Below, in pieces: positions 26,818 through 42,341 of a stretch of DNA of 64,000 nt (positions are counted from its first letter, which is position 1; each line of letters begins with the position of its first letter). Source of the stretch: Candidatus Latescibacterota bacterium (GTDB lineage Bacteria; Latescibacterota; UBA2968; UBA8231); assembly GCA_965204725.1 (NCBI GenBank), contig OZ242005.1, forward strand, positions 4,512,001-4,576,000, written 5' to 3'. A program made the position numbers and the translations under genes. The notes beneath the pieces are model-generated. The model was not told where the DNA came from. It saw nothing but the letters and a program-made list of their open reading frames with translations, and searched no databases.

Positions 26818-26836
26818 CCCAGAGCGATTGGCAGCC

Positions 26837-28084
26837 ATGGCAAAAATCCTGATCGTATCCATCGACTGCTGGCGCTACGACGCCCTGAGCCGGACGAACC
26901 CGCGCTTTAATACGCCCAAATTCGACTTGCTGACGCGGGATTACGCCTTTGCCGAGCGCTACTTTGTCACCGCGCCGGCGACTCGTCCTTCGCACACCTC
27001 GCTGTTTACCGGGCTGTATCCTTTTGAGCACGGGCTTTTTGGGCAGACCTACCTCAAGATGTTCGCTGGCGTGGTCAACCTGTTCGACGTTTTTGCCGCG
27101 GCCGGGTACAGCGTGCGGGGGTTTTCCGAACGGCCGGACGTCTTCCGCTTCCTCGACTTCGCGCCTTTTATCGGGCCGGTTGATCCACGAGCCACCCAGC
27201 AGCACTTGGGGTCGCTCGAACGCCTGTGCGCCGAGCTGATCGAGCCGAGTGGGCCGCAGTTTAAGTTCCTCCACTTTTGGTACACGCACGGCGGCTACGG
27301 CTTGGGCGGCATACCCCATCCGCCCGATTTGCGGCAGTTGGTGGCCGCCGGGCAGGTGGGCGAAGCCCTGCGCTACTACGAAGCGGCTGTGACCCACGTG
27401 CTGGAGTTTTCCCTCGTCGAGCTAGTCAAGCGAATCGACCTCGACGAGTGGGCGGTCTTTATCTGCGGCGATCACGGCGAGGGATTTTGTGGGGAGGTTA
27501 TGGCGCACGGCGACCGGCTGCATCCCAACGTGGTTCACGTGCCCATGCTGGCGCACGTGCCGGGCGGGTTCTCCTTTCCGTGCGACCGAGCGATTTCCGC
27601 CATCGATCTGTTTCCAACCATCGCGGCGTTGGCCGACCTGCCGGTTGACTACCGGGGATTTGGGCAGAACTGGCTGGAGCCGAGCGCGGCGTCAGCCGAG
27701 CGTTGGGTCCTATCTGAGCTAGACAGCCTGTACGGGGTGGGCTTTCTCAACCCGGCCAATCTGCGCCTGCCCGAGGAGCGCGTCACTGCGCCTACGGCTA
27801 TCAACGGGGAGGAAATAGCGCGCTGTGCCGAGGGCATCCGCGAGTGGTGCCTGTGCGATGGACGGCATTTCTACCGCGAGAACGAACAGACGGGCGAATA
27901 TGTCCTGCGCGACCTGCGCCACGGCGACGACAACTTGGCTTGCGCGGAACCATCGTCCTATCGCGCGCAATACCGCGCCCTGCGGGAGCACTCCTCGTAT
28001 CAACAGATGCCGGCGCAAGGGGCGGTCGCTGGCGAGGCCGAGCTCCTCAAAGAGCGCCTGCGCGCCCTCGGGTATCTAGATTGA
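26837..28084 (+). CDS. sulfatase-like alkaline phosphatase superfamily hydrolase (Thr at the nucleophile position)
   Basis: SIDCWRYD, TRPSHTSLFTGLYP.EHG, GDHGE, C-terminal RLRALGYL. Confidence 0.85.
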   Translation: MAKILIVSIDCWRYDALSRTNPRFNTPKFDLLTRDYAFAERYFVTAPATRPSHTSLFTGLYPFEHGLFGQTYLKMFAGVVNLFDVFAAAGYSVRGFSERPDVFRFLDFAPFIGPVDPRATQQHLGSLERLCAELIEPSGPQFKFLHFWYTHGGYGLGGIPHPPDLRQLVAAGQVGEALRYYEAAVTHVLEFSLVELVKRIDLDEWAVFICGDHGEGFCGEVMAHGDRLHPNVVHVPMLAHVPGGFSFPCDRAISAIDLFPTIAALADLPVDYRGFGQNWLEPSAASAERWVLSELDSLYGVGFLNPANLRLPEERVTAPTAINGEEIARCAEGIREWCLCDGRHFYRENEQTGEYVLRDLRHGDDNLACAEPSSYRAQYRALREHSSYQQMPAQGAVAGEAELLKERLRALGYLD

Positions 28085-29163
28085 CTGCCGCGGCTCACCT
28101 ATTCGTCTGGTTGCTCGTCTTGGCCGGGTGCGGCGAGGATCCGAGCGTGGATAGCACCCCAAGCGGCGACTGTGCCGGCAACATTCTGCCGGGCAACCAC
28201 ATCGTGCGCTCGCGCGGAGATGCGGACGCGCTGGAGAAGGAGGGCCGATGCAATTACACCATTGCCGGCGACCTCGAAATTACGCGCCTAAACCTCGCTC
28301 TTTTTGAGGGCTTGAACCAGCTCAGCACCGTGGATGGCAACCTCACTATCCACGACAACGACGAACTCAAAAACTTTGAGGGACTAAACGACCTCGCCTC
28401 CGTGGGGGGAGACGTCGCCATCTACGACAACGGCGAACTCGTCAACCTCAAGGGGCTATCCTTCCTCCACACAATCGGCGGGCACTTTAGCGTCTCCCAC
28501 AACGACAAGCTGGTCGCCGTAGATGGCCTCATCAAACTCAATGCCGTCGCCGGCGACGTCCGCATCGACAACAACAACCAACTGGCCGATGTCAACGGCC
28601 TGTTCGGCCTCACCGCGGTCGGCGGCAGCTTCACCATTGCGTTCAACCCCTCGCTCGCGCTCGTAGAAGACCTCTCGAATCTCAGCAGCGTGGGCGGCGA
28701 CCTCGTCGTCGAGGACAACGGGGCCCTCACCGCGCTGGAGGACATATCGGCCCTAAAGGAGATTGGCGGCAGCTTGCGGATTGGACGCAACGCCGCGTTG
28801 GACCTCGTCGAGGACGTATCGAGCCTAACGCACATCGGCCAAGACCTGAGCGTGCATAGCAACCCGCGGCTGACGAGCATCGCCGGGCTGGCCCAGCTCA
28901 GCCGGGTTGGCCGGGACCTCAACCTCTACAACAACGAAAAACTGACCTCTTTGACGGGATTGGAAAGCCTTGAGCAGGTTGGCCGGGACCTCAATCTCTA
29001 CGACAACGAAAAACTGACGAGTCTCGCCGGGCTGGCCCAGCTCGTCGGCATTGGGCGCAACGTGCTCATCGTCGAAAACGGCAACGTCCCTACGAGCGAG
29101 GCCCAAGCCTTGGCCGATCGGGCCGCGACGGGCGAGGTGTCCATCGCCAACAACGCGGATTAA
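28081..29163 (+). CDS. receptor L-domain / LRR-like repeat lipoprotein
   Basis: Lipobox LVLAGC; about 11-12 repeats of 24 aa (LxxLxxVGGDLxIxxNxxL); TTGA overlap with the upstream gene. Confidence 0.85.
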   Translation: MTAAAHLFVWLLVLAGCGEDPSVDSTPSGDCAGNILPGNHIVRSRGDADALEKEGRCNYTIAGDLEITRLNLALFEGLNQLSTVDGNLTIHDNDELKNFEGLNDLASVGGDVAIYDNGELVNLKGLSFLHTIGGHFSVSHNDKLVAVDGLIKLNAVAGDVRIDNNNQLADVNGLFGLTAVGGSFTIAFNPSLALVEDLSNLSSVGGDLVVEDNGALTALEDISALKEIGGSLRIGRNAALDLVEDVSSLTHIGQDLSVHSNPRLTSIAGLAQLSRVGRDLNLYNNEKLTSLTGLESLEQVGRDLNLYDNEKLTSLAGLAQLVGIGRNVLIVENGNVPTSEAQALADRAATGEVSIANNAD

Positions 29164-29906
29164 GCCATCCCAGTAATAACTTGCTCCACCTCGGCAACGG
29201 TCGTCTCCTTGGGATCGATGTCGTCGGCGACGACGCGGCCTTGGCGCAGCACCACGATCCGGTCCACAACCTCAAAGACGTGGTGGATGTTGTGCGCGAT
29301 GAAAATGCAGGAGTGGCCCGAATCGCGGGCGTTGCGGACGAAGTGCAAGACGCCTTGGGTCTCGGCGACTCCTAGGTTGTTGGTCGGCTCGTCGAGAATG
29401 ATTAGCTCGCTATCGAAGTGCATGGCCCGCGCAATGGCCACGGATTGACGCTCGCCGCCCGACAACGCACCGATGGGCGTCGTGGGGGGAATGTCCTTTT
29501 CAATGCCCACCTGCTTGAGCAAGGCACGGGCCACATTGGCCATGGCGTCTTGGTCCATGCGCCCTAAAAACCTCGGGCCTTTTAGGGGTTCGCGGCCCAA
29601 GAAAAAATTCCGCGCAATGGACAATTCCGCTACGAGGGCGGAGTCTTGGTAGATGGTTTCAATGCCGTAGCTAATGGCGTCGGCCGTGCTCTTTATGTCG
29701 GCTCGCGCACCGCGAATGAAGATGGCGCCGCTGCTGGCGGGGACGGCCCCGGAGAGAATTTTGATCAGCGTGGATTTACCGGCTCCATTGTCGCCGAGCA
29801 AGCCGACGATCTCGCGCTCGTTGACCGTCAGGTGGACGTTTTCGAGGGCATGCACCCGGCCGTAGGACTTGCTGATGTTTTTCATCTGGACTAGTGCCGC
29901 TGTCAT
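29160..29906 (-). CDS. sugar ABC transporter ATP-binding protein (single NBD)
   Basis: GDNGAGKS, LSGGERQ, IILDEPT. Confidence 0.93.
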   Translation of the reverse strand: MTAALVQMKNISKSYGRVHALENVHLTVNEREIVGLLGDNGAGKSTLIKILSGAVPASSGAIFIRGARADIKSTADAISYGIETIYQDSALVAELSIARNFFLGREPLKGPRFLGRMDQDAMANVARALLKQVGIEKDIPPTTPIGALSGGERQSVAIARAMHFDSELIILDEPTNNLGVAETQGVLHFVRNARDSGHSCIFIAHNIHHVFEVVDRIVVLRQGRVVADDIDPKETTVAEVEQVITGMA

Positions 29907-29909
29907 CGG

Positions 29910-32183
29910 CTAGTCTCCCTTGATGAAGTCGGCGATGGCGCGAATTTCCGCTTGAGTGAGGTCCAACGACTCCTTGGATGTGCCCGGGGCAAACTGCTTG
30001 GGATCGGCGAGAAACCGTTCCAAGTCGGCTGGCGTCCACACCATGTCTAGCGAGCGGAGCGCGTCTGAGAACAGGTAGCCGTTGACCGCACCCACACGCC
30101 GCCCAAGCACCCCGACGAGGTGCGGACCCATGCCGTGTTTCTCGGCATTCAGGCTGTGACAACCGCTGCAATATGCGTCGTATAGCTGAGCACCGGTCGC
30201 CGCGACCGTACCCACCGTATCCTCGCAGTCGATCGCATAGACGTTGCGGTTCCACTTCGATTCATCGGCGCAGTGGGCGTAGGATCGGCTCAGGAAATGG
30301 ACCCATCCCTCATCGACCAACAGCGCGAGACGTCGATCCGGCATTTGCGCGAGATCCCGGATCCGAGAGCCTACTTCAATGCGCTCGACGTATTGCACGT
30401 CCGTGCCGTCGCGCCGAACTCGAAAGAGCGCGTAGCCGCTCCCCTGTGTACCGGAAAGCGAACCGATCAGCAGATCGTCTCTCCACAGCGGGAACAGGTG
30501 CTCGTCATTGACGATGACGCTGGAGATGCCGATGGACGGCACCCAAGCGAAAACGGGCTTGATGAAGCCATCGTGTAGCCCCACCGCTTCGGCACGGGAC
30601 ATTCGGGACACATTGACCGTGCTTCCATACCCGACGCCATAGGAGACCTGCGGCCAACCGTAATTGCCGCCTGCTACCAGCACGTTGAGTTCACCGCCGC
30701 CTTGCGGTCCGTGCTCGGTTTCCCACAAGTGGCCGGCCGCATCCCGGATCAGCCCTTGCGGATTGCGAAGGCCGAACGCCAGCGTCTCCGCCCGGCCGGT
30801 CTTGATTTCAACGCGGACGAGCTTGCCCAAGTGTGAGGCCGGGTCTTGAGCATACTCACCTTGACCATGATCGCCAGTTACGACCAGCAAGTGGTCGGGC
30901 CCGTCCGTCAACATCCGGCCGCCCGCGTGGTCTCCTCCTCCCGTGGCGTCTGCGGTTGGTAGGCAGGGTTCGGCGTCGAATACCGTTCTCCACTCCGGCG
31001 ACACTGAAACGTCCGCGCCTTGTTGCAAAAGCGTCGTCGCGGACAACCGGAACCGCAGGCACTCGCCAGTGAAGTAGTGATGCGTCACAAACAGTTCATA
31101 CCGCCCGGCCGAATGCCGTTTCAACAAAATGTCGGCCACTCGAAACCGGTCCGAGCGGAAATTTGCTTGGTCCGGGTGCGCGAGGAGTTCGGCCTTGTTC
31201 ATCGGCACGTTCCCCTCTAGATACGCCACCTCCCCGGTTGGCCGCACCAGCGCGAACCGCCCGTGCGGCGTGGCCACGAGCAAGTCGTTGCCCAACGGTG
31301 CGATAGCCCCACCCCAAGCGCGATCCCAGCGGAGCCGGACCCACAACGATTGCAGATCATACAGGTGCGTCGTGAGCATCTCAGGGTGGGGGCGTGGAGC
31401 AGGGGGCGGGCTACCGCATCCCGGCGTCGTGGACGCCTCGGCCGCGACGACGCCCAACACCGCTGTCGCGGAGTACGACACGCCACCTTGGTCATAGTCC
31501 ACCTGCACCGACAAGCACTTCCCTTGCAGTTCGGGCTCCATGAAGTACTGATAAGACGGTCCACCTCCACGCTTGGGCAATACCTTGCAATCAGACCCGT
31601 CCGCGTTGCACATAAACCAATGCCACGGCGACCGACGTACAAATGGATATAGGCTTTCCATGCTAACTTTTGCGAATTTTCCCATCAGGGGCTGGTCGCT
31701 GCTAATCGTGGCGGCTGAGGACGCTTGGAGCACAGGGGCTGTTATCGGAACCGGGAACGACCACTCAGAGGACCTCGCGGTGTTGACTGCGGCCACCCGA
31801 ACCTCGTACTGCATCCCGCTCATCGCCCACATATTCGCGATGGTATAGGGCGAGGAGGGTGCAGGGTATTCGCGCCATGCAGGGACGAGTTGGTTTTTCG
31901 GCCGGACGGCGATCTTGTAACTCGTCGCGCCGGGAATTTCGCGCCAAGAGATCGTAAGGCGTCGGTTGGCAGCACTCACGGCAACGTCGGTGGGCGTACC
32001 GAGGGCTTCCACCTTGTCGGGAGTTCTTTTGACGTACATGTAGCCAGCGGCAGCCAACAGCATGAGCAAAAGAGCAAGCAGCGAAATTCGGGAGCGAATT
32101 TTTCGGGGGTGGGTGGGTGGTAACTCATTGTTTTTCAATGACTTATGAAAACAATCTAAAATTATTGCTCCAAATAGGTCCAT
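29910..32183 (-). CDS. array unit U5: anchor + FN3 + Ig-like + PQQ-dependent sugar dehydrogenase propeller + cytochrome c
   Basis: FN3 (LTISW...SYKI...YEVRVAAVN...SEWS); GSDH motifs HAGGR, GLRNPQG, EHGPQGGGELN, NYGWP, RIRD; haem motif CSGCH, GPHLVGV.GR. Confidence 0.9.
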   Translation of the reverse strand: MDLFGAIILDCFHKSLKNNELPPTHPRKIRSRISLLALLLMLLAAAGYMYVKRTPDKVEALGTPTDVAVSAANRRLTISWREIPGATSYKIAVRPKNQLVPAWREYPAPSSPYTIANMWAMSGMQYEVRVAAVNTARSSEWSFPVPITAPVLQASSAATISSDQPLMGKFAKVSMESLYPFVRRSPWHWFMCNADGSDCKVLPKRGGGPSYQYFMEPELQGKCLSVQVDYDQGGVSYSATAVLGVVAAEASTTPGCGSPPPAPRPHPEMLTTHLYDLQSLWVRLRWDRAWGGAIAPLGNDLLVATPHGRFALVRPTGEVAYLEGNVPMNKAELLAHPDQANFRSDRFRVADILLKRHSAGRYELFVTHHYFTGECLRFRLSATTLLQQGADVSVSPEWRTVFDAEPCLPTADATGGGDHAGGRMLTDGPDHLLVVTGDHGQGEYAQDPASHLGKLVRVEIKTGRAETLAFGLRNPQGLIRDAAGHLWETEHGPQGGGELNVLVAGGNYGWPQVSYGVGYGSTVNVSRMSRAEAVGLHDGFIKPVFAWVPSIGISSVIVNDEHLFPLWRDDLLIGSLSGTQGSGYALFRVRRDGTDVQYVERIEVGSRIRDLAQMPDRRLALLVDEGWVHFLSRSYAHCADESKWNRNVYAIDCEDTVGTVAATGAQLYDAYCSGCHSLNAEKHGMGPHLVGVLGRRVGAVNGYLFSDALRSLDMVWTPADLERFLADPKQFAPGTSKESLDLTQAEIRAIADFIKGD

Positions 32184-32228
32184 GCGTACGTCCTAACGGA
32201 TTATAGAAAAATCAAATCGTCGTAGGAA
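32121..32228 (-). promoter_or_regulatory. AT-rich junction block, copy 1: putative promoter, RBS and 25-bp palindrome
   Basis: Minus strand TTCCTA-17-TATAAT, then AGGA-7nt-ATG(32183); palindrome TAACTCATTG-TTTTT-CAATGACTTA at 32121-32145. Confidence 0.55.
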
Positions 32229-34040
32229 ATGGACCCGTCCCCCATCGACCAACAGCGCGATCCGGCGATCCGGCATTTGCGCGAGATCCCGGATCCGGTT
32301 GCCCACCTTAATGCGCTCGACGTATTGCACGTCCGGGCTGTCGCGCCGGACTCGATAGAGCGCGTGGCCGCCAAGCGAGCCGATCAGCAGATCGTCTTTC
32401 CACAGCGGGAACCAGCGCTCGTCATTGACGATGACGCTGGAGATGCCGATGGACGGAACCCACGCGAAAACGGGCTTGATGAAGCCATCGTGTAGCCCCA
32501 CCGCTTCGGCTTGGGACACGTTGACCGTGCTTCTATACTCAACGCCATAGGAAACCTGCGGCCAACCGTAATTGCCGCCTGCGACCAGCAGGTTGAGTTC
32601 ATCGCCGCCTTGCGGTCCGTGCTCGGTTTCCCACAAGTGGCCGGCCGCGTCCCGGGTCAGCCCCTGCGGATTGCGAAGGCCACGGGCCAGTACCTCTGTA
32701 TGGCCGGTCTCGATTTCGACGCGGACGAGCTTGCCCAAGTGCGAGGCCGGATCTTGAGCATACTCACCTTGCCTGTGATCTCCAATTACGACCAACAAGT
32801 GGTCGGATCCATCCGTCAACATCCGGCCGCCCGCTTGCTCGGATGCGGTACGCACACACGGATCCGCATCCAATATCGTTCTCCATTCCGGCGAGACTGA
32901 AACGTCCGCGCCTTGTTGCAAAAGCGTCGTCGAGGACAACCGGAACCGCATACACGCCCCGGTGAAATAGTGATGCGTCACAAACAGTTCATACCGCCCG
33001 GCCGAACGCCGTTTCAACAAAATGTCGGCCACTCGAAATTCGTCCAAGAGGAAATTTTCTTGGTCCGGGTGCGCGAGGAGTTCGGCCTTATTCATCGGCA
33101 CGTTCCCTTCGAGATACGCCACCTCCCCAGTTGAGCGCACCAGCGCGAGCCGTCCGTGCGGCGTTGCCACGAGCAAGTCGTTGCCCAACGGTGCGATGGC
33201 CCCACCCCGGGCGCGATCCCAGCGGAGCCAGACCCACGACAATTGCAGATCATACAAGTGCGTCGTCAGCGTCCGGCCGGCACCGACGATGCCTAACACC
33301 GCTGTCGCGGAGTATGACACACCCTCTTTGTCGTAGTCAACCTGAACCGACAGGCGCTTCCCTTCCATTGAGGCCTCCATGAAATACTTGTAAGACGGTA
33401 GAGCGTGATACCTCGGCAATACCTTGCGATCAGACCCGTCCGCGCTGGAAATAAACCAGTGCCACGGCAACCTGTTTTCAAGTGGATACTGGCCGACCAA
33501 GCGAACGGCTATGGGTTGTCCCACCACCGGGGACGAGGAGCTGCCAATCGCATTGGCTGGAGCCGCTTGCAGCACGGGGGCTGTTATCGAAACCGGGGCC
33601 GACCACTCGGATTGCCCACGGGCGTTGACCGCGGCCACCCGAACCTCGTACTGCATCCCGCTCATCGCCCACCTCTTGATGGTATAGGGCGAGGAGGGCG
33701 ACGTGTACTCGCGCCACTCGAAGGGGACGAGTCCGTTTTTTGGTCTGACAACGATCTTGTAACTCTCCGCGCCGGGAATTGCGTCCCAAGCGACGGTAAG
33801 GCGTCGGTTGGCAGCACCAACGGCGACTTCGGTGGGCGTACCGAGCACAGGTGATTCAATGCGACGCGCTTCCACCTTGTCGGGGGTTCTTTTGACGTAC
33901 ATGCAGCCAGCGGCAGCCAACAGCATGAGCAAAAGAGCAAGCAGCGAAATTCGGGAGCGAATTTTTCGGGGAGGGAGTAATCCATTTCTTTTCAACAACT
34001 TATGAAAACAATCTAAAATTATTGCTCCAAAGAGGTCCAT
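32193..34040 (-). CDS. array unit U4: FN3 + Ig-like + PQQ propeller, no cytochrome c
   Basis: Same motifs as U5; lipobox-like LAAAGC; QAGGR; ends FLRRFDFSIIR*. Confidence 0.88.
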   Translation of the reverse strand: MDLFGAIILDCFHKLLKRNGLLPPRKIRSRISLLALLLMLLAAAGCMYVKRTPDKVEARRIESPVLGTPTEVAVGAANRRLTVAWDAIPGAESYKIVVRPKNGLVPFEWREYTSPSSPYTIKRWAMSGMQYEVRVAAVNARGQSEWSAPVSITAPVLQAAPANAIGSSSSPVVGQPIAVRLVGQYPLENRLPWHWFISSADGSDRKVLPRYHALPSYKYFMEASMEGKRLSVQVDYDKEGVSYSATAVLGIVGAGRTLTTHLYDLQLSWVWLRWDRARGGAIAPLGNDLLVATPHGRLALVRSTGEVAYLEGNVPMNKAELLAHPDQENFLLDEFRVADILLKRRSAGRYELFVTHHYFTGACMRFRLSSTTLLQQGADVSVSPEWRTILDADPCVRTASEQAGGRMLTDGSDHLLVVIGDHRQGEYAQDPASHLGKLVRVEIETGHTEVLARGLRNPQGLTRDAAGHLWETEHGPQGGDELNLLVAGGNYGWPQVSYGVEYRSTVNVSQAEAVGLHDGFIKPVFAWVPSIGISSVIVNDERWFPLWKDDLLIGSLGGHALYRVRRDSPDVQYVERIKVGNRIRDLAQMPDRRIALLVDGGRVHFLRRFDFSIIR

Positions 34041-34085
34041 GCGTACGTCCTAACGGATTATAGAAAAATCAAATCGTCGTAGGAA
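33978..34085 (-). promoter_or_regulatory. AT-rich junction block, copy 2
   Basis: 33998-34104 matches 32141-32247 with one mismatch seen; degenerate palindrome TAATCCATTTCTTTTCAACAACTTA at 33978-34002. Confidence 0.55.
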
Positions 34086-35849
34086 ATGGACCCGTCCCCC
34101 ATCGGCCAACAGCGCGAGACGGCTATCCGGCATTTGCGCGAGATCCCGGATTCGGTTGCCCACCTCAATGCGCTCGACGTACTGCACGTCCGTGCCGTTG
34201 CGCCGAACTCGAAAGAGCGCGTGGCCGCTCCCCTGTGTACCGGAAAGCGAACCGATTAGCAGGTCGTCTCTCCACAGCGGGAACAGGTGCTCGTCATTGA
34301 CGATGACGCTGGAGATGCCGATGGACGGAACCCACGCGAAAACGGGCTTTGTGAAGCCATCGTGTAGCCCCACCTCTGCGGCGCGGGGCACGTTGACCTT
34401 GCTTCCATACTCAACGCCATACGTAACCCGAGGCCAACCGTAGTTGCCGCCCGCTACCAGCACGTTGAGTTCATCGCCGCCCTCTGGTCCGTGTTCGGTT
34501 TCCCACAAGTGGCCGGCCGCGTCCCGGGTTAGCCCTTGCGGATTGCGAAGGCCGCGGGCCAGTAACGCTGTGTGGCCGGTCTCGATTTCGACGCGGATGA
34601 GCTTACCCAAGTGCGAGGCCGGGTCTTGAGCGTACTTATTTTGACTGTGAGTTCCGATTACGACCAACAAGTGGTCGGGGCCATCCGTCAACATCCGGCC
34701 GCCCGCTTGGAGTGATGGGGAACGTACGCACGGCTGTGCATCAAATATCGTTCTCCATTCCGGCGACACCGAAACGTCCGCGCCTTGTTGCAAAAGCGTC
34801 GTCGCGGACAACCGGAACCGGAAGCACTCGCCGGTGAAATAGTAATGTGTTGCGAACAGTTCATACCGCCCGGCCGAATGCCGTTTCAGCAAAATGTCGG
34901 CCACTCGAAACCTTCTTTTGCCCAGATGCACGTTGAGTTCCGCTTGATTCATCGGCACGTTTCCCTCGAGATACGCCACCTCCCCGGTTGGACGCACCAG
35001 TGCGAGCCGCCCCCACGGCGTTGCCACGAGCAAGTCGTTGCCCAACGGCGCGATGGCACCACCACCACGTGCGCCATCCCAGCGAAGCCAAGCCCACGCC
35101 GATTCCAAATCGTACAAGTGCGTCGTCAGCACCCGGGCGGCCCCGACGACGCCCAACGCCGCGGTCGCAGAATACGACACCCCCTCTTTGTCATAGTCAA
35201 CCTGAACCGATAGGTGCTTCCCTTGCATGGCCGGCTCCATGAAATAGTGCTCAGACTCCCAGAAATAGTGCTCAGACTCCCAAAGTTGACGCCACGGTAA
35301 TACCTTGCGATCCAACCCGTCCGCGCTAAAAATAAACCAATGCCACCGCGACTGGTTCGCAAATGGACGCTGGCTGTGCAAGTCAACGGCTACGACTTCT
35401 CCCACCAACGGGGGCGAGAAGTCGCTGATCGCGTCGGCTGGGGCCGCTTGCAGCACGGGGGCTGTTATCGAGACCGGGGCGGACCACTCGGATTGCCCAC
35501 GGGCGTTGACCGCGGCTACTCGCACCTCATACTCCATCCCGCTCATCGCCCACATATTCGCGATGGAATAGGGCGAGGAGGGCGTCATGTATTCGTGCCA
35601 TGTGGGGACGAGTTCGTTTTTCAGTCTGACGGCGATCTTGTAACTCGTCGCGCCGGGCATTTCGCGCCAAGCGACGGTAAATCGTCTGTTGGAAGCACCA
35701 ACAGCGACTCCGGTGGGCGCACCGGGGGCTTCCACCTTGTCGGGGGGGCTATTGGCAGCGGATGCCAACAGCATGAGCAAGAGAGCAAACACCGAGACTC
35801 GGAAGCGAATTTTTCGTGTCGCCGCGACTATGGCCCCCCCTCCTTGCAA
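34050..35849 (-). CDS. array unit U3: FN3 + Ig-like + PQQ propeller, no cytochrome c
   Basis: Same motifs; weak TTG start overlapping the end of U2; ends FLRRFDFSIIR*. Confidence 0.85.
   Translation of the reverse strand: MQGGGAIVAATRKIRFRVSVFALLLMLLASAANSPPDKVEAPGAPTGVAVGASNRRFTVAWREMPGATSYKIAVRLKNELVPTWHEYMTPSSPYSIANMWAMSGMEYEVRVAAVNARGQSEWSAPVSITAPVLQAAPADAISDFSPPLVGEVVAVDLHSQRPFANQSRWHWFIFSADGLDRKVLPWRQLWESEHYFWESEHYFMEPAMQGKHLSVQVDYDKEGVSYSATAALGVVGAARVLTTHLYDLESAWAWLRWDGARGGGAIAPLGNDLLVATPWGRLALVRPTGEVAYLEGNVPMNQAELNVHLGKRRFRVADILLKRHSAGRYELFATHYYFTGECFRFRLSATTLLQQGADVSVSPEWRTIFDAQPCVRSPSLQAGGRMLTDGPDHLLVVIGTHSQNKYAQDPASHLGKLIRVEIETGHTALLARGLRNPQGLTRDAAGHLWETEHGPEGGDELNVLVAGGNYGWPRVTYGVEYGSKVNVPRAAEVGLHDGFTKPVFAWVPSIGISSVIVNDEHLFPLWRDDLLIGSLSGTQGSGHALFRVRRNGTDVQYVERIEVGNRIRDLAQMPDSRLALLADGGRVHFLRRFDFSIIR
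35241..35282. repeat. perfect 21-bp tandem duplication in U3 (WESEHYF x2)
   Basis: GAAATAGTGCTCAGACTCCCA twice. Confidence 0.95.
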
Positions 35850-37642
35850 TCAACCGCATAGACGCTTTCCCCTAACTCATCGTCGCAGTTGGCGTATCGG
35901 CTCAGGAAATGGACCCGTCCTCCATCAACCAACAGCGCGAGACGGCTATCCGGCATTTGCGTGAGATCCCGGATTCGGTTGCCCACCTCAATGCGCTCGA
36001 CGTATTGCACGTCCGTGCCGTCGCGTCGGACTCGAAAGAGCGCGTAGCCGATCCCCTGTGTACCTGAGAGCGAACCGATCAGCAGATCGTCTTTCCACAG
36101 CGGGAACCAGCGCTCGTCATTGACGATGATGCTGGAGATGCCGATGGACGGAACCCACGCGAAAACGGGCTTGATGAAGCCATCGTGTAGCCCCACCTCT
36201 GCGGCGCGGGGCACGTTGACCCGGCTTTCATACTCAACGCCGTACGTAACCTGCGGCCAACCGTAGTTGCCGCCTGCTACCAGCACGTTGAGTTCATCGC
36301 CGCCTTCTGGCCCGTGCTCTGTTTCCCACAAGTGGCCGGCCGCGTCCCGGATTAGCCCCTGCGGATTGCGAAGGCCCAAGGCCAGCGTCTCCGCCCGGCC
36401 GGTCTCGATTTCGACGCGGATGAGCTTGCCCAAGTGCGAGGCCGGGTCTTGAGCGTACTTATTTTGATTGTGAGTTCCAATTACGACCAACAAGTGGTCG
36501 GGGCCGTCCATCAACATCCGGCCGCCCGCTTGGATTAGATTGGCTGCGGCACTCAGGCACGGCTCCGCATTCAATATCGTTCGCCATTCCGGCGAGACTG
36601 AAACGTCCGCGCCTTGTTGCAAAAGCGTCGTCGCGGACAATCGGAACCGCATGCACTCGCCAGTTAAATAGTGATGCGTCACAAACAGTTCATACCGCCC
36701 AGCCGAATGCCGTTTCAGCAAAATGTCGGCCACTCGGAACCTTCTTCTGTCCGGGTGCGCGGGGAGTTCCGCTTGATTCATCGGCACGTTTCCCTCCAGA
36801 TACGCCACCTCCCCGGTTGGCCGCACCAGCGCGAACCGCCCATGCGGCGTGGCCACGAGCAAGTCGTCGCCCAACGGCGCGATGGCTCCACCCCAAGCGC
36901 GATCCCAGCGGAGCCAAGCCCACGACGATTGCAGATCGTACAAATGCGTCGTCAGCACCCGGGCGGCCCCGACGACGCCCAACGCCGCGGTCGCAGAATA
37001 CGACACCCCCTCTTTGTCATAGTCAACCTGAACCGACAGGTGCTTCCCTTGCATGGCCGGCTCCATGAAACAGTGCCGAGACTCCGAAGGCTGACGCCAC
37101 GGCAATACCTTGCGGTCCAACCCGTCCGCACTACAAATCAACCAATGCCACTTCGACCGGTTCGCAAATGGACGTTGGCTGTGCAAGTCAACGGCTACGA
37201 CTTCTCCCACTACCGGGGGCGAGAAGGTGCGAACCGCATCGGCCGGGGCCGCTTGCAACGCGGGGGCTGTCATCGAGACCGGGGCCGACCACTCGGATTG
37301 CCCACGGGCGTTGACCGCAGCTACCCGCACCTCATATTCCATCCCGCTCATCGCCCACATATTCGCGATGGTATAAGGCGAGGAGGGGGTCATGTATTCG
37401 CGCCATGCGGGGACGAGTTCGTTTTTCAGTCTGATGGCGATCTTGTAACTCGCCGCGCCGGGCATTTCGCGCCAAGCGACGGTAAATCGTCTGTTGGAAG
37501 CACTCATGGCGACGCCGGTGGGCGCACCGAGGGCTTCCACCTTGTCGGAGGGGCTGTTAGCAGCGGACGCCAACAGCATGAGCAAGAGAGCAAGCGTCGA
37601 AGTTCGGGAGCGAATTCTTCGGGGGAGTTGAATGCCTGTCAC
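35828..37642 (-). CDS. array unit U2: FN3 + Ig-like + PQQ propeller, no cytochrome c
   Basis: Same motifs; GTG start; ends in the linker (YAVDCKEGGP*) at a G7 tract. Confidence 0.86.
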   Translation of the reverse strand: MTGIQLPRRIRSRTSTLALLLMLLASAANSPSDKVEALGAPTGVAMSASNRRFTVAWREMPGAASYKIAIRLKNELVPAWREYMTPSSPYTIANMWAMSGMEYEVRVAAVNARGQSEWSAPVSMTAPALQAAPADAVRTFSPPVVGEVVAVDLHSQRPFANRSKWHWLICSADGLDRKVLPWRQPSESRHCFMEPAMQGKHLSVQVDYDKEGVSYSATAALGVVGAARVLTTHLYDLQSSWAWLRWDRAWGGAIAPLGDDLLVATPHGRFALVRPTGEVAYLEGNVPMNQAELPAHPDRRRFRVADILLKRHSAGRYELFVTHHYLTGECMRFRLSATTLLQQGADVSVSPEWRTILNAEPCLSAAANLIQAGGRMLMDGPDHLLVVIGTHNQNKYAQDPASHLGKLIRVEIETGRAETLALGLRNPQGLIRDAAGHLWETEHGPEGGDELNVLVAGGNYGWPQVTYGVEYESRVNVPRAAEVGLHDGFIKPVFAWVPSIGISSIIVNDERWFPLWKDDLLIGSLSGTQGIGYALFRVRRDGTDVQYVERIEVGNRIRDLTQMPDSRLALLVDGGRVHFLSRYANCDDELGESVYAVDCKEGGP

Positions 37643-37711
37643 CGTGGCGGTCCCGACCGTATCCGGTATCGTCGCGCTGGCATGGTCCTCGCAGTTGGTC
37701 GCATAGAGGCT

Positions 37712-39520
37712 TCAGTCCCACTTCGCCTCATCGGCGCAGTGGTCGTAGGATCGGCTCAGTAAATAGACCAACCCCCTATCGAGCAATAGTGCAAGACGTC
37801 GATCCGGCATTTGCGCGAGATCCCGGATCCGACAGCCCAGATACCACAATGGACAGCCTACTCCAATGCGCTCGACGTATTGCACGTCCGTGCCATCGCG
37901 ACGAACTCGAAAGAGCGCGTGGCCGCTCCCCTGTGTACCTGCAAGCGAACCGATCAGCAGGTCGTCTCTCCACAGCGGGAACCAGCGCTCGTCATTGACG
38001 ATGAGGCTGGAAATGCCGATGGACGGAACCCAAGCGAAAACGGGCTTTGTGAAGCCGTCGTGTAGCCCCACCTGTTCGGCTTGGGACACATTAACTCGGC
38101 TTCCATAACCGACGCCATAGGAGACCCGAGGCCAACCGTAATTGCCGCCTGCGACCAGCACGTTGAGTTCGTCGCCGCCTTGCGGTCCGTGATCGGTTCC
38201 CCACAAGTGGCCGGCCGCGTCCCGGGCGAGCCCCTGCGAATTGCGGAGGCCAGAGGCCAGCACCTCCGCCCGGCCGGTCGCGATTTCAACGCGGACGAGC
38301 TTGCCCAAGTGCGAGGCCGGGTCTTGAGCGGCCTCATTTACCAGATGCGGTCCCGGTACGACCAACAAGTGGTCGGGGCCGTCCGTCAACATCCGGCCCC
38401 CCGCTTGGACGGACGCGGTTTTCAGGCACGGCTCCGCATCATATATCGTTCTCCATTTCGGCGACACCGAAACGTCTGCGCCTCGGTGCCGAAGCGTCGT
38501 CGCGGACAACCGGAACCGCAGGCACTCGCTGGTGAAATGGTGATGCGCCACAAACAGTTCATACCGCCCGGCCGAACGCCGTTTCAACAAAATGTCGGTC
38601 ACTTGGAACCGGTTCAAGGATATTGTCTTTGTCGGGTGGGCGAGGAGTCCGGCCTTATTCATCGGCACATTCCCTTTGAGCGGCACCACCTCCCCGGTGG
38701 TCGGGCGTATCAGATTGAACCGCCCCCACGGCGTTACGACGAGCAAGTCGTTGCCCAACGGCGCGATGGCACCGCCGCGCACGTAGGTATTGGCCATGTG
38801 ATCCCATCGGTCTCGGAGCCAGATCCACACCGTTTGCAGATCATACAAGTGCGTCGTCAGCACCCCGGCGGCTTCGACGATGCCCAACTCCGCCGTCGCA
38901 GAGTACGACACCCCCTCTTTGTCGTAGTCAACCTGAACCGACAGGTGCTTCCCTTCCATGGAGGGATCCATGAAATACTCCCAAGTCGGTCGCGATTGAC
39001 GCCTCGGCAATACCTTGGGGTCAGACCCATCCGCGCAGGAAATAAACCAATGCCACGGCGACCTATTCTCAAATGGACGCTGGCTGTTCACGCCAACGGC
39101 TATGGGTTCTCCCATCAACGAGGACGAGGGGATGCGAATCGCATCGGCCGGAGCTGCTTGCAGCACGGGGGCTGTTATCGAGACCGGGGCTGACCACTCG
39201 GAGTGCCCACGGGCGTTGACCGCGACCACTCGCACCTCGTACTCCATCCCGCTCATCGCCCACATACTCTCGATGGTATCGGGCGCGGAGGTCGCCGTGT
39301 GTTCGCGCCATGCAGGGACAAGTTCGTTTTTCGGTCTGACGGCGATCGTGTAACTCGTCGCGTCGGGGACTTCGCCCCAAGCGACGGTAAGGCGTCTGTT
39401 GGCAGCAGTAACGGCGACTTCGGTGGGCGTATCGAGGGTTTCCACCATGTCGAGGGTGCTTTTGACGTACATGCAGCCAGCGGGTGCCAACAGCATGAGC
39501 AAGAGAGCAAGTGCCGGCAC
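37712..39520 (-). CDS. array unit U1: FN3 + Ig-like + PQQ propeller, no cytochrome c
   Basis: Same motifs; lipobox-like LAPAGC; GTG start 3 nt after the permease stop; ends HCADEAKWD*. Confidence 0.87.
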   Translation of the reverse strand: MPALALLLMLLAPAGCMYVKSTLDMVETLDTPTEVAVTAANRRLTVAWGEVPDATSYTIAVRPKNELVPAWREHTATSAPDTIESMWAMSGMEYEVRVVAVNARGHSEWSAPVSITAPVLQAAPADAIRIPSSSLMGEPIAVGVNSQRPFENRSPWHWFISCADGSDPKVLPRRQSRPTWEYFMDPSMEGKHLSVQVDYDKEGVSYSATAELGIVEAAGVLTTHLYDLQTVWIWLRDRWDHMANTYVRGGAIAPLGNDLLVVTPWGRFNLIRPTTGEVVPLKGNVPMNKAGLLAHPTKTISLNRFQVTDILLKRRSAGRYELFVAHHHFTSECLRFRLSATTLRHRGADVSVSPKWRTIYDAEPCLKTASVQAGGRMLTDGPDHLLVVPGPHLVNEAAQDPASHLGKLVRVEIATGRAEVLASGLRNSQGLARDAAGHLWGTDHGPQGGDELNVLVAGGNYGWPRVSYGVGYGSRVNVSQAEQVGLHDGFTKPVFAWVPSIGISSLIVNDERWFPLWRDDLLIGSLAGTQGSGHALFRVRRDGTDVQYVERIGVGCPLWYLGCRIRDLAQMPDRRLALLLDRGLVYLLSRSYDHCADEAKWD

Positions 39521-39523
39521 CCG

Positions 39524-40504
39524 CTAGCGCCTCTCCTGCTGACGGCGGTCCACCCACGAATGCAGGGCCATCATTCCCAAGATGATCGCGCCGATGAAAA
39601 TGTTGTACGCCAGCCCGGGGACGCCGATGAGCACGATGCCGTTGCGCATCAGGCGCAGGATGAACACGCCGAGCACCGTGCCGACGATGGTGCCGCGCCC
39701 CCCCGTTAGGGCTGTCCCCCCAATCACCACCATGGCGATGACCTCTAGCTCGTACCCCGTGCCGCTGTTGGGATTGGCCGCGGCCGTGCGTATGGAACTG
39801 ATGATGCCGGCGAAACCCGCCATGACGGCCGAGAGAACAAACAGCTTGACCTTGGTGCGCTCTACGCGCACGCCGCGGGCGCGGGCGGCCTCGGCGTTGC
39901 CGCCTGCGGCTTGGAGCCAGTTCCCCATCTTGGTCTGCGTCAGCAAATAGCCGAGCAACAGCGCCGCCGCCACAAACCAAAACAGCGACATGTACACGCG
40001 CAGGCCAGCCACCTCAAAACTCCCGACCAGCACCTCGGCGAGGAAGAGATCGGCGGCGTCCCAAGTCCGCTGCGGAAACCCGCTCGTCACCACCAGCGCA
40101 CTGCCCCGCACCACCAGCAACATGCCGAGCGTCACCAGAAACGAGGGAATCCGCAAGCGCGTGACGAACAAACCGCTGCACAGGCCGAGGGCCGCAGCCG
40201 TGCCCAAGGCGAGGACAAAGCCGACCTCAATGGACGTAGCCTCGGTGTTGTACAGGGTCCACATGAGCACTGGGCAGAACCCGAACAGCGAGCCGACCGA
40301 AAGGTCGAATTCGCCAGCCGTCATCAGCAGGGTCATGGCCAGCGCGATCAGCCCCAACTCCACTGTGAAGGCCAGCATGTTGCCGATGTTGCGCGCCGAT
40401 AGAAACGCCGGATTGATCTGCCAGAAGACGAAAATCATGGCGACCAGCAGGACAAACGGGCCGAATTCGGGGCGCGACAGGATGCGCTGTACGGCTGCGT
40501 TCAT
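39524..40504 (-). CDS. sugar ABC transporter permease (RbsC-like)
   Basis: GEFDLSVGS, IPSFLVTLG, GGNAEAARARGV, YELEVIAMVVIGGTALTGGRG. Confidence 0.93.
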   Translation of the reverse strand: MNAAVQRILSRPEFGPFVLLVAMIFVFWQINPAFLSARNIGNMLAFTVELGLIALAMTLLMTAGEFDLSVGSLFGFCPVLMWTLYNTEATSIEVGFVLALGTAAALGLCSGLFVTRLRIPSFLVTLGMLLVVRGSALVVTSGFPQRTWDAADLFLAEVLVGSFEVAGLRVYMSLFWFVAAALLLGYLLTQTKMGNWLQAAGGNAEAARARGVRVERTKVKLFVLSAVMAGFAGIISSIRTAAANPNSGTGYELEVIAMVVIGGTALTGGRGTIVGTVLGVFILRLMRNGIVLIGVPGLAYNIFIGAIILGMMALHSWVDRRQQERR

Positions 40505-41440
40505 CTATTCGCCCGACAGAATGTCGTCGTATAGCTGGGCCTTGTCGGCCTCGTAGAGCACGCCGGTGATCACGTCAAACCCCGCGGGGATGCCGCTGGC
40601 TGCCATGGCCGCCAACGACAGGGCCACGTAGCTGGTCGCGTGCGGGTCTTGCCACTGGGCGGCATTCACGTATCCGGCGAGCACCTCTCGGGTCGTGTCG
40701 AGGGAATTGCCCCAGCCGACGACCGGAATTTCTCCGGGCGCGATCCCGCACTGGTCGAACACGCGCTTGATGCTGCCGGTTACCAAGTCGCCGAGGCCGA
40801 TGATCGCGTCGATGTTGTCGATGTTGGCCGTCATATAGTCCACCATGCGGGCGATGGCTTCGGCTTGGTCGAGGGTCGCGTCGGTGACTTCCCAAGCAAT
40901 GCCCAACGGCTCAAAGACGCTGGCAACGCCCTGCTCCTCTTGGACGCCATAGGTCGCGCCCGGCACTTCTACCGGCAGCCAGACGAAGTCGCCGGATTGG
41001 ACCAAGCCCTTGTCAACCAAGTACTGCGCCCACTGCCGCCCAATCCCGACTAGGTCGCCGCCCACATAAGCGTCAAAACTAGCGGTGGGATCGGGCGTGT
41101 TCATGTTGATGATGGGTATGTTGGCTTCGTTGGCCTCTTTCGCCACCTCTACCAAACTGCCCGGGTCTGGGCTGCTGGTGACGATGCCATCGGCCCCGGT
41201 GGCAATAGCGGCGCGCACGGCCTCCTGATGAGAAGCCACGTCGCCGTTGTGGAAGGACGTGTTGACCTTGTGGCCGGTATCCTCTTGCCACTGACGGGCA
41301 CCGGCGAGAAAGTAGGTCCACACCGGATCGGCGGGCGAGCCGTGCGAAATCCAGTAAAAGGTCTTGGCCTCAGCCAACGCCGGGCTCAGAGCCAACAGCA
41401 CACTGGCAAACGCGACAATCCTCATCTTAAACATCGGCAT
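40505..41440 (-). CDS. sugar ABC transporter substrate-binding protein
   Basis: Signal peptide ending ALA-EA; periplasmic binding protein type I features; GGAGAGG RBS. Confidence 0.88.
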   Translation of the reverse strand: MPMFKMRIVAFASVLLALSPALAEAKTFYWISHGSPADPVWTYFLAGARQWQEDTGHKVNTSFHNGDVASHQEAVRAAIATGADGIVTSSPDPGSLVEVAKEANEANIPIINMNTPDPTASFDAYVGGDLVGIGRQWAQYLVDKGLVQSGDFVWLPVEVPGATYGVQEEQGVASVFEPLGIAWEVTDATLDQAEAIARMVDYMTANIDNIDAIIGLGDLVTGSIKRVFDQCGIAPGEIPVVGWGNSLDTTREVLAGYVNAAQWQDPHATSYVALSLAAMAASGIPAGFDVITGVLYEADKAQLYDDILSGE

Positions 41441-41459
41441 TCCTCTCCATGTAATTAGT

Positions 41460-42341
41460 TCAGCGGCCAATCTCAAGGGACTCCACCTGCACCAACAGCG
41501 TCTCGCGTTCCTCGGTACTTATGGCTCGCAACGGACGCCGAGGGTCGCCGCACTCCATCCCTATGCGCTGACTGACCACCGCCAAGACGCTGCCGAAATA
41601 GCCGAATTGCGCCACCGTGCTGTGAAAGGCATTGGCCCGTTGCTGGGCCGCTTGGGCCGCGGCCAGATCGCCCGCTTGGTAGGCATTCCATAAGGCCATC
41701 CACAGCTCCGGAGCCGCGCACAAAGGGCCATCGACCGACCCGACGGCTCCGACGGTCATGGCGGGCAACATCAGCTTGCCGCTGCCGATAAAGGCGTCTA
41801 GCCCCATGCCGACGAATTCGAGCAGGTTGGCGAATATCGGCGACGAGTGTTTCAAACCAACTGTCTGGGGCACTTCCTCGACGAGACGCCGCATGAGGGC
41901 TGGGCTGACATCGAGGCCGGTGCAGCCGGGCAAATTGTAGATGAACAACGGCCGGTCCGCCGCCGCTCCCACGGCCCGATAGTATTCTACCACGCCGTCA
42001 TCGTCGCCTTGGTAGAAAAAGGGCGGCACCGCGCAGACAGCTTCCACTCCGGCTCGGGCTGCGTGAGCCGCCAGTTTTTCGGCCCGCGCCGTGGTATTGG
42101 CTCCCACGTGCATAATGACCTGAGTGCGCCCCGCGTTTTGGTCGGCGGCGATCTCGGCGATGCGCTGGTTCTCCTCGTCGTTGAGCAGGACGCTCTCGCC
42201 AGTGCCGCCAGCGACCCAAAAGCCGTGGACGCCGGCTCGTATATTGAACTCCATTGTGGCGCGGAAGGCTTGCTCGTTTAAGGTCCCATCCTCGTTTTTC
42301 GGGCTGATAATCGCCGGCACTACCCCGTGAAATTGCCCCAT
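41460..42341 (-). CDS. DHDPS/N-acetylneuraminate lyase family aldolase
   Basis: GGTGE, VPPFFY, IYNLP, Schiff-base GLKHS. Confidence 0.9.
   Translation of the reverse strand: MGQFHGVVPAIISPKNEDGTLNEQAFRATMEFNIRAGVHGFWVAGGTGESVLLNDEENQRIAEIAADQNAGRTQVIMHVGANTTARAEKLAAHAARAGVEAVCAVPPFFYQGDDDGVVEYYRAVGAAADRPLFIYNLPGCTGLDVSPALMRRLVEEVPQTVGLKHSSPIFANLLEFVGMGLDAFIGSGKLMLPAMTVGAVGSVDGPLCAAPELWMALWNAYQAGDLAAAQAAQQRANAFHSTVAQFGYFGSVLAVVSQRIGMECGDPRRPLRAISTEERETLLVQVESLEIGR

Follow-up and report, generated by a model that had tools for sequence, protein, structure and literature searches.

Mosaic tandem paralogs in a Latescibacterota genome: probable recurrent unequal crossover and gene conversion within an exported dehydrogenase-fold family

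This study concerns a 64,000-nt stretch of DNA from a Candidatus Latescibacterota bacterium (assembly GCA_965204725.1, contig OZ242005.1, positions 4,512,001 to 4,576,000), hereafter the window, and a tandem array of five paralogous genes within it. An open reading frame (ORF) listing and a protein alignment place these head-to-tail copies, U1 to U5, on the minus strand at 29910-39520 (coordinates without a prefix are window positions), between the permease gene and the ATPase gene of a monosaccharide-type ATP-binding cassette (ABC) operon. One ancestral gene has been amplified in tandem here in a lineage-specific manner; its product was exported (with a signal peptide or as a lipoprotein) and consisted of a fibronectin type III (fn3) domain, a second immunoglobulin (Ig)-like sandwich, a six-bladed propeller of the GSDH/pyrroloquinoline quinone (PQQ) type and a C-terminal cytochrome c. 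The copies are mosaics, and we put at roughly 85% the probability that recurrent unequal crossover and ectopic gene conversion, acting across a family of ten members at four loci, are the best explanation for them. What is seen is recombination of the ordinary kind among repeated genes rather than a system dedicated to switching.

U1 (37712-39520), U2 (35828-37642), U3 (34050-35849) and U4 (32193-34040) each encode fn3, the second beta-sandwich and the GSDH propeller without cytochrome c; all four are complete open frames of 599-615 aa with a start codon and a signal sequence. U5 (29910-32183; 757 aa) is the sole full-length copy in the array and ends in a c-type cytochrome (CxxCH). Measured against U1, the copies U2-U5 have a protein identity of 74-76% and a DNA identity of 81.5-90%, and successive copies from U1 to U5 are spaced by 69, -22, 9 and 9 nt.

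Conflicting relationships within the array and across the family

The original prediction held that different pairs of array copies are closest in different segments and that no single duplication tree accounts for the pattern. The alignment bore out the motifs on which it relied: U2 and U3 share LASAANSP, VGEVVAVDLHSQRPFAN, QNKY, NVPRAAE and MPDSR; U3 and U5 have NDEHLFPLWRDD in common, and U2 and U4 NDERWFPLWKDD; U3 and U4 share GHT..LARG, QGLTRD and the C-terminus RRFDFSIIR; U2 and U5 share RWDRAWGG, GRAETLA and QGLIRD; and U1 shares KRRSAG and NVSQAE with U4, WPRV and GFTKP with U3, and SRSY.HCADE.KW with U5. A single tree proved insufficient. The five-copy codon alignment (1680 ungapped columns, 516 variable, 183 informative) contains all ten possible 2-versus-3 splits, with support of 43 for U2U3, 22 for U4U5, 21 for U1U5, 18 for U1U4 and 12 for U3U4, and lesser support for U1U3 (11), U2U5 (9), U1U2 (8), U3U5 (6) and U2U4 (4). 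The best maximum likelihood (ML) tree is (U1,(U2,U3),(U4,U5)), and of the 154 biallelic informative sites 89 are at odds with the best pair of mutually compatible splits. Among 300 alignments simulated on that single tree under the general time-reversible model with invariant sites and gamma-distributed rates (GTR+I+G), the count averaged 42 (standard deviation 6.6) and reached at most 61. The observed conflict is thus beyond simulated chance. The pairwise homoplasy index (PHI) test returned p values of 0.0002 (50-nt windows), 0.0016 (100 nt) and 0.0004 (200 nt), the neighbour-similarity score gave p = 0.0002, and a GENECONV-like search for longest shared runs was significant after Bonferroni correction for U4-U5 (48 nt) and U2-U5 (43 nt).

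The genome studied (G000, of which C1 is a contig) holds ten members of the family at four loci, together with one fragment. The members outside the window are B1, B2 and B3 (C1:3197752-3203756), which form a second tandem array and of which B2 has a cytochrome c; S1 (C1:1206124-1208361), which is full length and also has a cytochrome c; and S2 (C1:2374815-2376887, or L010:1405-3477 on the minus strand of L010), which lacks its native 5' end and carries a frameshift near the 3' end of the propeller. With all ten copies the PHI statistic reached z scores of -12.3 to -12.9; it stayed low when only third codon positions were used (-5.9 to -7.4), when each codon contributed a single site (-6.2 to -8.3) and when S2 was left out (-3.3 to -4.7). 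Each copy's nearest neighbour shifts along the gene in sliding windows.

The shuffling had been predicted to take place within the array. Exchange is real, but the array is not a closed system, and the strongest tracts join its copies to outside ones (U1-S2, U5-B1 and U4-B3). In a maximal-segment tract test of 45 pairs, with 1000 permutations and hence a p floor of 0.001 (0.045 after Bonferroni correction), six pairs lay at the floor: U1-S2 (653 ungapped nt, 97.2% identity versus 83.5% outside, z 19.8), U5-B1 (284 nt, 93% versus 76% outside, z 13.8), U1-U5 (150 nt), U5-B2 (99 nt), B1-B2 (106 nt) and U4-S2 (94 nt). Weaker tracts joined U3-U5, U2-U5, U4-B3, U2-U3, U4-U5 and U2-U4. On the minus strand of the window, U1 shares 38109-38779 with S2 (96.6% over 671 nt versus 83.5% outside; synonymous divergence, dS, 0.068 versus 0.295), U5 shares 30955-31253 with B1 (92-93% versus 76%; dS 0.19 versus 0.48) and U4 shares 33213-33385 with B3 (97.1% versus 87.7%; dS 0.05 versus 0.23). 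Inside the array, the 3' part of U5 (30317-30584) matches U3 (34106-34373) at 93.7% and overlaps a tract shared with U1 (30328-30492 in U5, 37794-37979 in U1; 93.9%); U2 shares 36077-36196 with U4 (32382-32501; 99.2% over 120 nt versus 84.4% outside, dS 0 versus 0.30) and 36800-36915 with U5 (31221-31336; 95.7% versus 82.7% outside).

Because dS differs between tracts, the exchanges are of different ages: values are 0 for U2-U4, 0.03 for U2-U3, 0.05 for U4-B3, 0.07 for U1-S2 and 0.08 for U4-U5, rising to 0.13 for U1-U5, 0.18 for U3-U5 and 0.19 for U5-B1, against 0.23-0.48 for the same pairs outside their tracts. Some of the copies so joined lie megabases apart, S2 and U1 being separated by 2.2 Mb. 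A triplet test found U1 to be S2-like only within alignment columns 860-1906 (window 38076-38990; z 10-12). The partner of U1 in this youngest long tract is a 5'-truncated and frameshifted gene.

Trees of separate segments tell the same story. ML trees of four ~400-nt segments (13 sequences) differ, and in the approximately unbiased (AU) test no segment accepts a tree from any of the others (12 of 12 cross-segment comparisons rejected at p < 0.05, nine of them at p < 0.002). With 16 sequences, monophyly of U1-U5 was rejected in all four segments (p-AU 0.034, 2e-57, 3e-58 and 0.005). A clade joining U5 to M1-M3, the three copies at the same locus of the relative G046 (L037), is the ML arrangement or acceptable in the two 5' segments (p-AU 0.65 and 0.47) and is rejected in the two 3' segments (0.011 and 0.033), where U5 falls among the G000 paralogs. 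Given the positional orthology of U5 and M3, on which the argument rests, this split behaviour is the signature of exchange after species separation.

Junctions, copy number and growth of the array

Three classes of junction, all on the minus strand, separate the array copies. At U1>U2 (class III, 37643-37711) the TGA of U1 is followed by 23 in-frame codons, a remnant of the propeller-cytochrome linker, that run straight into U2; U1 and U2 lie in one frame (37643-37714) and without the single TGA would form a fused protein of ~1200 aa; readthrough of this stop, or selenocysteine insertion there, was also considered. At U2>U3 (class II, 35828-35849) U2 is cut off in the linker ahead of the cytochrome domain, with a break after VDCKE and a short filler leading to RKIR, and the two ORFs overlap by 22 nt. 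Both breakpoint and filler recur at B1>B2 (78% identity over 308 nt), and the two arrays therefore share an old junction. At U3>U4 (class I, 34041-34073) the last propeller strand (VHFL) runs directly into an upstream leader, TTTGATTTTTCTATAATCCGTTAGGAC.TACGC-ATG, whose translation supplies the RRFDFSIIR* that ends U3 and U4; U4>U5 (also class I, 32184-32216) agrees with it at 99 of the 100 central bases. The class I leader also stands ahead of B1, in a longer version between M1 and M2 of L037 and in shortened form between B2 and B3.

Near-identity of the U3>U4 and U4>U5 junctions is the expected product of unequal crossover between neighbouring units. U4, with a U5-like 5' leader and N-terminus, a U3-like 3' end and junction and a middle nearest to B3, is a candidate hybrid of this kind, its two ends fitting unequal crossover at class I junctions. 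At least three independent duplication breakpoints and one propagation event built the array. U4 and U5 are each preceded by their own upstream leader; the 5' end of U1 is joined directly behind the permease stop, the native leader (present in the relative G007) and N-terminal region having gone. U3 carries a perfect 21-nt tandem duplication (35241-35282; WESEHYF twice), located where the second beta-sandwich varies most. This was the only repeat reported by Tandem Repeats Finder, which did not detect the array itself because a period of ~1.8 kb is beyond its limit.

Unequal crossover had also been predicted, and both the reused class I junction and the varying copy number at this locus speak for it. 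The same locus holds one full-length gene (fn3, sandwich, propeller and cytochrome c) in G007, with flanks that are 89-91% identical as far as the array edges; three tandem copies in G046 (M1 with cytochrome, M2 without, M3 with), with flanks 92-93% identical; and fragments only in G019. U5 is the positional counterpart of the single G007 gene and of M3. Identity of the genes inside the locus is 77-80%, against 89-93% for the flanks (G007 and L037). Among 31 genomes of the genus, the family is present in four (ten copies in G000, six in G046, two each in G007 and G019); a search with the fn3 and sandwich part as query did not find it in the other 27. The records of the relatives are Candidatus Latescibacterota metagenome-assembled genomes (MAGs), and sponge metagenome is the label of most sequencing runs that contain the stretch; none of the runs listed is recorded as RNA.

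Two of the relatives merit further comment. In G019 (L035:4842-7026) all that is left of the gene is one N-terminal piece and one C-terminal piece, next to a shortened permease ORF; decay may be affecting the entire operon in this genome. The two G007 copies (G007a and G007b; L030/L031) lie at different loci yet are 94% identical, and the flanks of the G007b locus are conserved in G000 (C1 ~169.5-175.6 kb), where no family member was found, which points to independent recent duplication or conversion together with gain or loss of a locus. A stretch of ~134 nt downstream of G007b (L031:11879-12012) matches at least three places in G000 at 89-90% (C1:1544721, 1659452 and 4498818) and looks like a small dispersed repeat.

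The family evolves fast. Between U5 and G007a, nonsynonymous divergence (dN) is 0.217 and dS 0.50 (dN/dS 0.43); for the flanking ABC ATPase and permease, dN is 0.02-0.03 and dS 0.22 (dN/dS 0.10-0.13). Pairwise dN/dS is 0.36-0.63 across the ten copies and 0.36-0.54 among the five of the array, which are therefore constrained. In sliding windows the propeller has ratios of 0.23-0.6, and only around U5 residues 143-192, where the second sandwich starts, do they climb to ~1-1.2; that sandwich is the most substituted part of the protein (at least three residue states at 40-47% of positions). Variable propeller positions among the ten copies make up 51% of strand and helix and 51% of loop. The pattern looks like general fast evolution rather than cassette-like hypervariable blocks.

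We suggest that the array would have grown by illegitimate duplication and then by unequal crossover, and that general homologous recombination among copies 80-90% identical would repeatedly have copied patches of ~50-700 nt within the array and between loci, as ectopic gene conversion in events of different ages. The recurrent segmental conversion or unequal crossover that the original prediction proposed is upheld by the site-conflict simulation, the PHI, tract and triplet tests, the AU tests of segment trees and the reused junction. Because the fast-evolving copies are still open and constrained, we regard the patchwork as most probably a side effect of recombination between repeats, one that also spreads and recombines variants, and not as a programmed switch. 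What the locus offers is a record of array growth by junction reuse followed by scrambling with copies megabases away, anchored by relatives with one copy, three copies or fragments; it reveals no new recombination mechanism. For this family, trees and orthology calls mislead unless made segment by segment.

Alternative explanations and known systems

Several points weigh against recombination as we read it, or at least blunt the evidence. The five-copy PHI signal weakens when one site per codon is used (p 0.007, 0.043 and 0.007), at third positions only (0.006, 0.063 and 0.007) and with codons as characters (0.016, 0.196 and 0.035), the clustering being partly within-codon, and eight of the ten pairs were not significant in the longest-run search; on the five copies by themselves the claim of recombination holds, on moderate and not overwhelming evidence. 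The PHI, tract and triplet tests were our own re-implementations of published methods rather than the published programs, the permutation floor limits the tract p-values, and several other high triplet scores reflect rate heterogeneity in the divergent 5' half of U5, not exchange. AU comparison of a segment's own ML tree with others favours that tree. Monophyly of the ten G000 copies was rejected in no segment (p-AU 0.13-0.88), so that post-speciation expansion and homogenisation are only partly separable. Finally, the Logan contigs that cover the array are ~200-550 nt long, too short for long-range order, and drop rare variants.

The mosaic blocks might be mis-joins between similar repeats: the source is of metagenome type, the relatives' records say MAG, repeats are a known cause of mis-assembly and the contigs are too short to test long-range linkage. 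Against this, array copies differ by 10-18%, no two copies share an exact stretch longer than 199 nt (U1-S2), or longer than 92 nt within the array, and the chromosome was assembled in 2 contigs. Logan contigs from four runs of four studies match the stretch at 95-100% identity: a 350-nt piece bridges U1>U2 in all four runs, a 290-nt piece bridges U2>U3 in three and a 451-nt piece bridges U3>U4 in one, each with 0-3 differences from the assembly; pieces leading from U1 into the permease flank occur in all four; and many further pieces of 200-550 nt show 0 differences, long enough for many tracts (50-300 nt) to fit within single contigs. An assembly artefact is unlikely, and mis-joining as the source of the blocks is scarcely credible. 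Equally hard to credit is an absence of recombination altogether, with the conflict produced by convergent selection or by homoplasy, parallel substitutions falling on the limited number of sites that are permissive in these fast-evolving genes. It is true that dN/dS across the ten copies is high by the standards of an enzyme, that roughly one informative site in three is in conflict even when alignments are simulated on a tree, and that the PHI signal is partly within-codon. Yet the 89 conflicting sites exceed the maximum of all simulations, third-position clustering persists, tracts are reduced in dS as well as dN and the AU tests reject a common tree.

Insertion of whole genes from other loci, with the array assembled from already distinct paralog lineages, would account for most of the incongruence in place of later patch-wise conversion; array copies are non-monophyletic in every segment, the class II junction and class I leader are common to the second array, and the 5' segments put U5 with the syntenic L037 array and U1-U4 with B and S copies. 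We consider it highly improbable, since it leaves breakpoints within genes unexplained: U1 is S2-like only in its middle 670-900 nt, U4 has three nearest neighbours along its length, and U5 joins an orthologous 5' half to a paralog-like 3' half. The array had also been likened to pilS/pilE or vls cassettes on an enzyme scaffold. Cassette antigenic variation at pilE/pilS in Neisseria and vlsE/vls in Borrelia involves a single expression site, promoterless silent cassettes and defined variable regions. A programmed system of this type would make U5 the expressed catalytic copy and the truncated copies a donor library for frequent unidirectional conversion. To its credit, a cytochrome domain and the histidine of an HxGGR motif (see below) occur together in U5 only, U5 takes part in seven of the 17 best-ranked tracts, and the partner in the youngest long tract, S2, is silent-looking; like the cassette systems, the family has multicopy, partly truncated paralogs, segmental non-reciprocal exchange and an exported product. 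The likeness nevertheless breaks down, and such programming is very unlikely here. U1-U4 are intact, constrained ORFs with starts and signal sequences, the same upstream leader precedes both U4 and U5, and the array lacks a lone expression site with promoterless fragments around it, the only silent-looking member of the family being S2, outside the window. Exchange is many-to-many and not aimed at one locus, tract dS of 0.03-0.19 marks old, fixed events, variation is not confined to defined regions (strand or helix and loop positions vary alike), and contigs from four studies, within their limits of length and loss of rare variants, show the same junctions, no alternative joint and no population heterogeneity.

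In those four runs the local sequence agrees as well as the junctions, and apparent variants are cross-mapped paralogs. A lone joint that seemed to go back from 36531 to 30954 was rejected as a contig of the paralog B1, its 25-nt insert being found at C1:3199027, and clustered differing letters on U1, U4 and U5 were likewise explained by cross-mapped contigs of S2, B3 and B1. Strain X2 shows clustered differences in U5 (32015-32041) that correspond to no one paralog, and they did not demonstrate recent conversion between strains. A diversity-generating retroelement was considered and set aside, with no search made for a reverse transcriptase: the variation extends along the gene and is not gathered in a variable repeat at the C-terminus.

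Recombination between repeated genes finds its closest parallels among bacterial multigene families. Ectopic conversion and unequal crossover have been described for prokaryotes generally (PMC6053082) and for Mycobacterium repeats (PMC12046097, PMC1762029). As in such families, exchange here is patch-wise between diverged paralogs, trees are segment-specific, copy number varies between close relatives and some segments are nearer to paralogs than to the positional ortholog. The copies are still 10-23% divergent, and the outcome is therefore a mosaic, not homogenisation. Unlike the families described, this one encodes an exported fn3-Ig-GSDH-cytochrome c protein of sponge-associated Latescibacterota. 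Among the matches listed in our search, no published description of such a family was found; passages of one paper on such genomes mention only FN3 and PQQ domains (PMC12993501).

Predicted proteins and genomic setting

Pfam searches found fn3 and GSDH (PF07995) domains in all five array copies, with PF07995 scores of 149-179 bits for U1-U5 (cut-off 25; E 2e-43 to 2e-52) and 136 bits for S2. The cytochrome c domain (PF00034) was matched in U5 at 33 bits (cut-off 21.3; sequence CSGCH), whereas U1-U4 lack it. An AlphaFold2 model of U5, built on a 26-sequence alignment, has a mean predicted local distance difference test (pLDDT) score of 78, with most of the propeller at 80-97. It shows a disordered or helical signal region (residues 1-60), fn3 (61-150), the second beta-sandwich (150-250), the six-bladed propeller (269-633) and, after a linker, a helical cytochrome (664-757). 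The best Foldseek matches of the propeller are 7CDY, 2G8S (Escherichia coli Asd), 3A9G, 2ISM and 1C9U (soluble glucose dehydrogenase, sGDH), with E values of 4e-21 to 3e-16 and target-normalised TM-scores (TMt) of 0.60-0.80 (0.72-0.80 for Asd-type chains); sequence searches agree in placing it among PQQ sugar dehydrogenases. For the second beta-sandwich, the ESM Atlas offered weak Ig-like leads only (scores 0.76-0.78). U1, U4 and U5 have A-G-C at the end of their hydrophobic N-terminal stretch, a sequence that can be read as a lipobox; in U2 and U3 the stretch ends in ASAANSP, without the Cys.

Much of the putative active site is kept. LRN(P/S)QG, with its Arg-Asn pair, occurs in all ten copies and three aligned relatives and aligns with GIRNPQG of 2G8S; HGPxGGDELN and GNYGWP are kept in all copies, bar one-residue variants in U1 and S2 (LRNSQG, DHGP) and in U5 (GGGELN). 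DHAGGR of U5 (30925-30945) aligns with NHFGGR of 2G8S and 7CDY, and alone among the ten copies U5 has the histidine; Q, E, G or L takes its place in the other nine, in G007a and G019a and in many distant cytochrome-fused homologs. The histidine is the putative equivalent of sGDH His144. His144 is the general base of sGDH (PMC6881789, PMC6881810), the corresponding histidine is often missing in the related AA12 family, and the Arg228/Asn229 pair of sGDH lies beside the PQQ ketones (both PMC6881810). In a search for PQQ biosynthesis genes, pqqC was unmatched, as it was in control genomes, and pqqE gave only sub-threshold radical S-adenosylmethionine (SAM) matches.

Resemblance to soluble PQQ sugar dehydrogenases (2G8S Asd/YliI; Acinetobacter calcoaceticus sGDH, 1C9U/1CQ1; 7CDY; 3A9G) extends to the GSDH domain and the six-bladed propeller (Foldseek E 4e-21 to 1e-15). 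The array proteins differ from these enzymes in their added N-terminal fn3 and Ig-like domains and lipoprotein-type signal, in the fused cytochrome c (within the array, U5 only) and in that the histidine which would correspond to the catalytic base occurs in only one of ten copies. In the quinohemoprotein pyranose dehydrogenase CcPDH, an AA12 PQQ domain is joined to an AA8 cytochrome b, and that built-in cytochrome accepts electrons (PMC6881789). U5 likewise joins a six-bladed PQQ-type domain to a cytochrome and has a structural match to CcPDH (6JT5), at 12% identity in the structural alignment; the fungal protein carries its cytochrome b at the N-terminus, whereas U5 has a class I c-type cytochrome at the C-terminus. 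Judged from its sequence, the likeliest role of U5 would be sugar oxidation in the periplasm or at the surface, with electrons passing to its own cytochrome and the reaction coupled to the adjoining sugar transporter. The truncated copies that lack the histidine may be active enzymes, may rely on a different base or may serve as binding proteins.

The vertebrate Hedgehog-interacting protein, HHIP, has the same propeller fold (Foldseek E ~5e-10, TMt ~0.5; 11-12% identity) and is a precedent for its non-catalytic use in binding. The ten-member family could, on a reading that we find doubtful, be a recombination-fed repertoire of exported proteins that recognise host glycans, with exchange among the arrays and the dispersed, partly silent copies selected for new surface combinations; U5 would be the redox member, and the copies without the histidine may serve, by analogy with HHIP, as binding or specificity modules. 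Were it true, the repertoire would be a diversity system on an enzyme fold, between passive concerted evolution and true cassette switching. Short of that, the family is a fast-evolving, copy-number-variable one in a subclade of sponge-associated Latescibacterota and a candidate factor for interaction with host or matrix sugars. Homologs at 45-67% identity occur in MAGs of Alphaproteobacteria, Dehalococcoidia, Gammaproteobacteria, Entotheonella, Binatia and Caldilineaceae (L040-L047), several of them multicopy, and the L041-L044 matches also cover the N-terminal part with fn3 and the second sandwich; symbionts living together may have exchanged the family horizontally.

Upstream of the array on the same strand lie the sugar-type ABC permease (39524-40504) and, ahead of it, a periplasmic binding protein (40505-41476). 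Downstream, also on the minus strand, is an ABC ATP-binding protein of 248 aa with a single nucleotide-binding domain (29160-29906), which matches only the first half (positions 1-237 of ~500) of xylose/ribose-type ATPase profiles and is of equal size in G007. A consensus scan for promoters and terminators between copies found nothing convincing with a sigma-70 consensus, which may not suit this phylum (seven promoter-like sites versus 3.4 ± 1.8 expected, none at the shared leader; nine terminator-like sites versus 11.3 expected). Beyond the ATPase gene, an ORF on the plus strand (27844-29163) has a Pfam match to the 'Receptor L domain' (E 7e-11), a domain typical of animal EGF and insulin receptors, and appears to be a eukaryote-like repeat protein from a sponge symbiont; its neighbour is a sulfatase-family gene (26828-28084), and G007 and G019 also have these two genes beside the locus.

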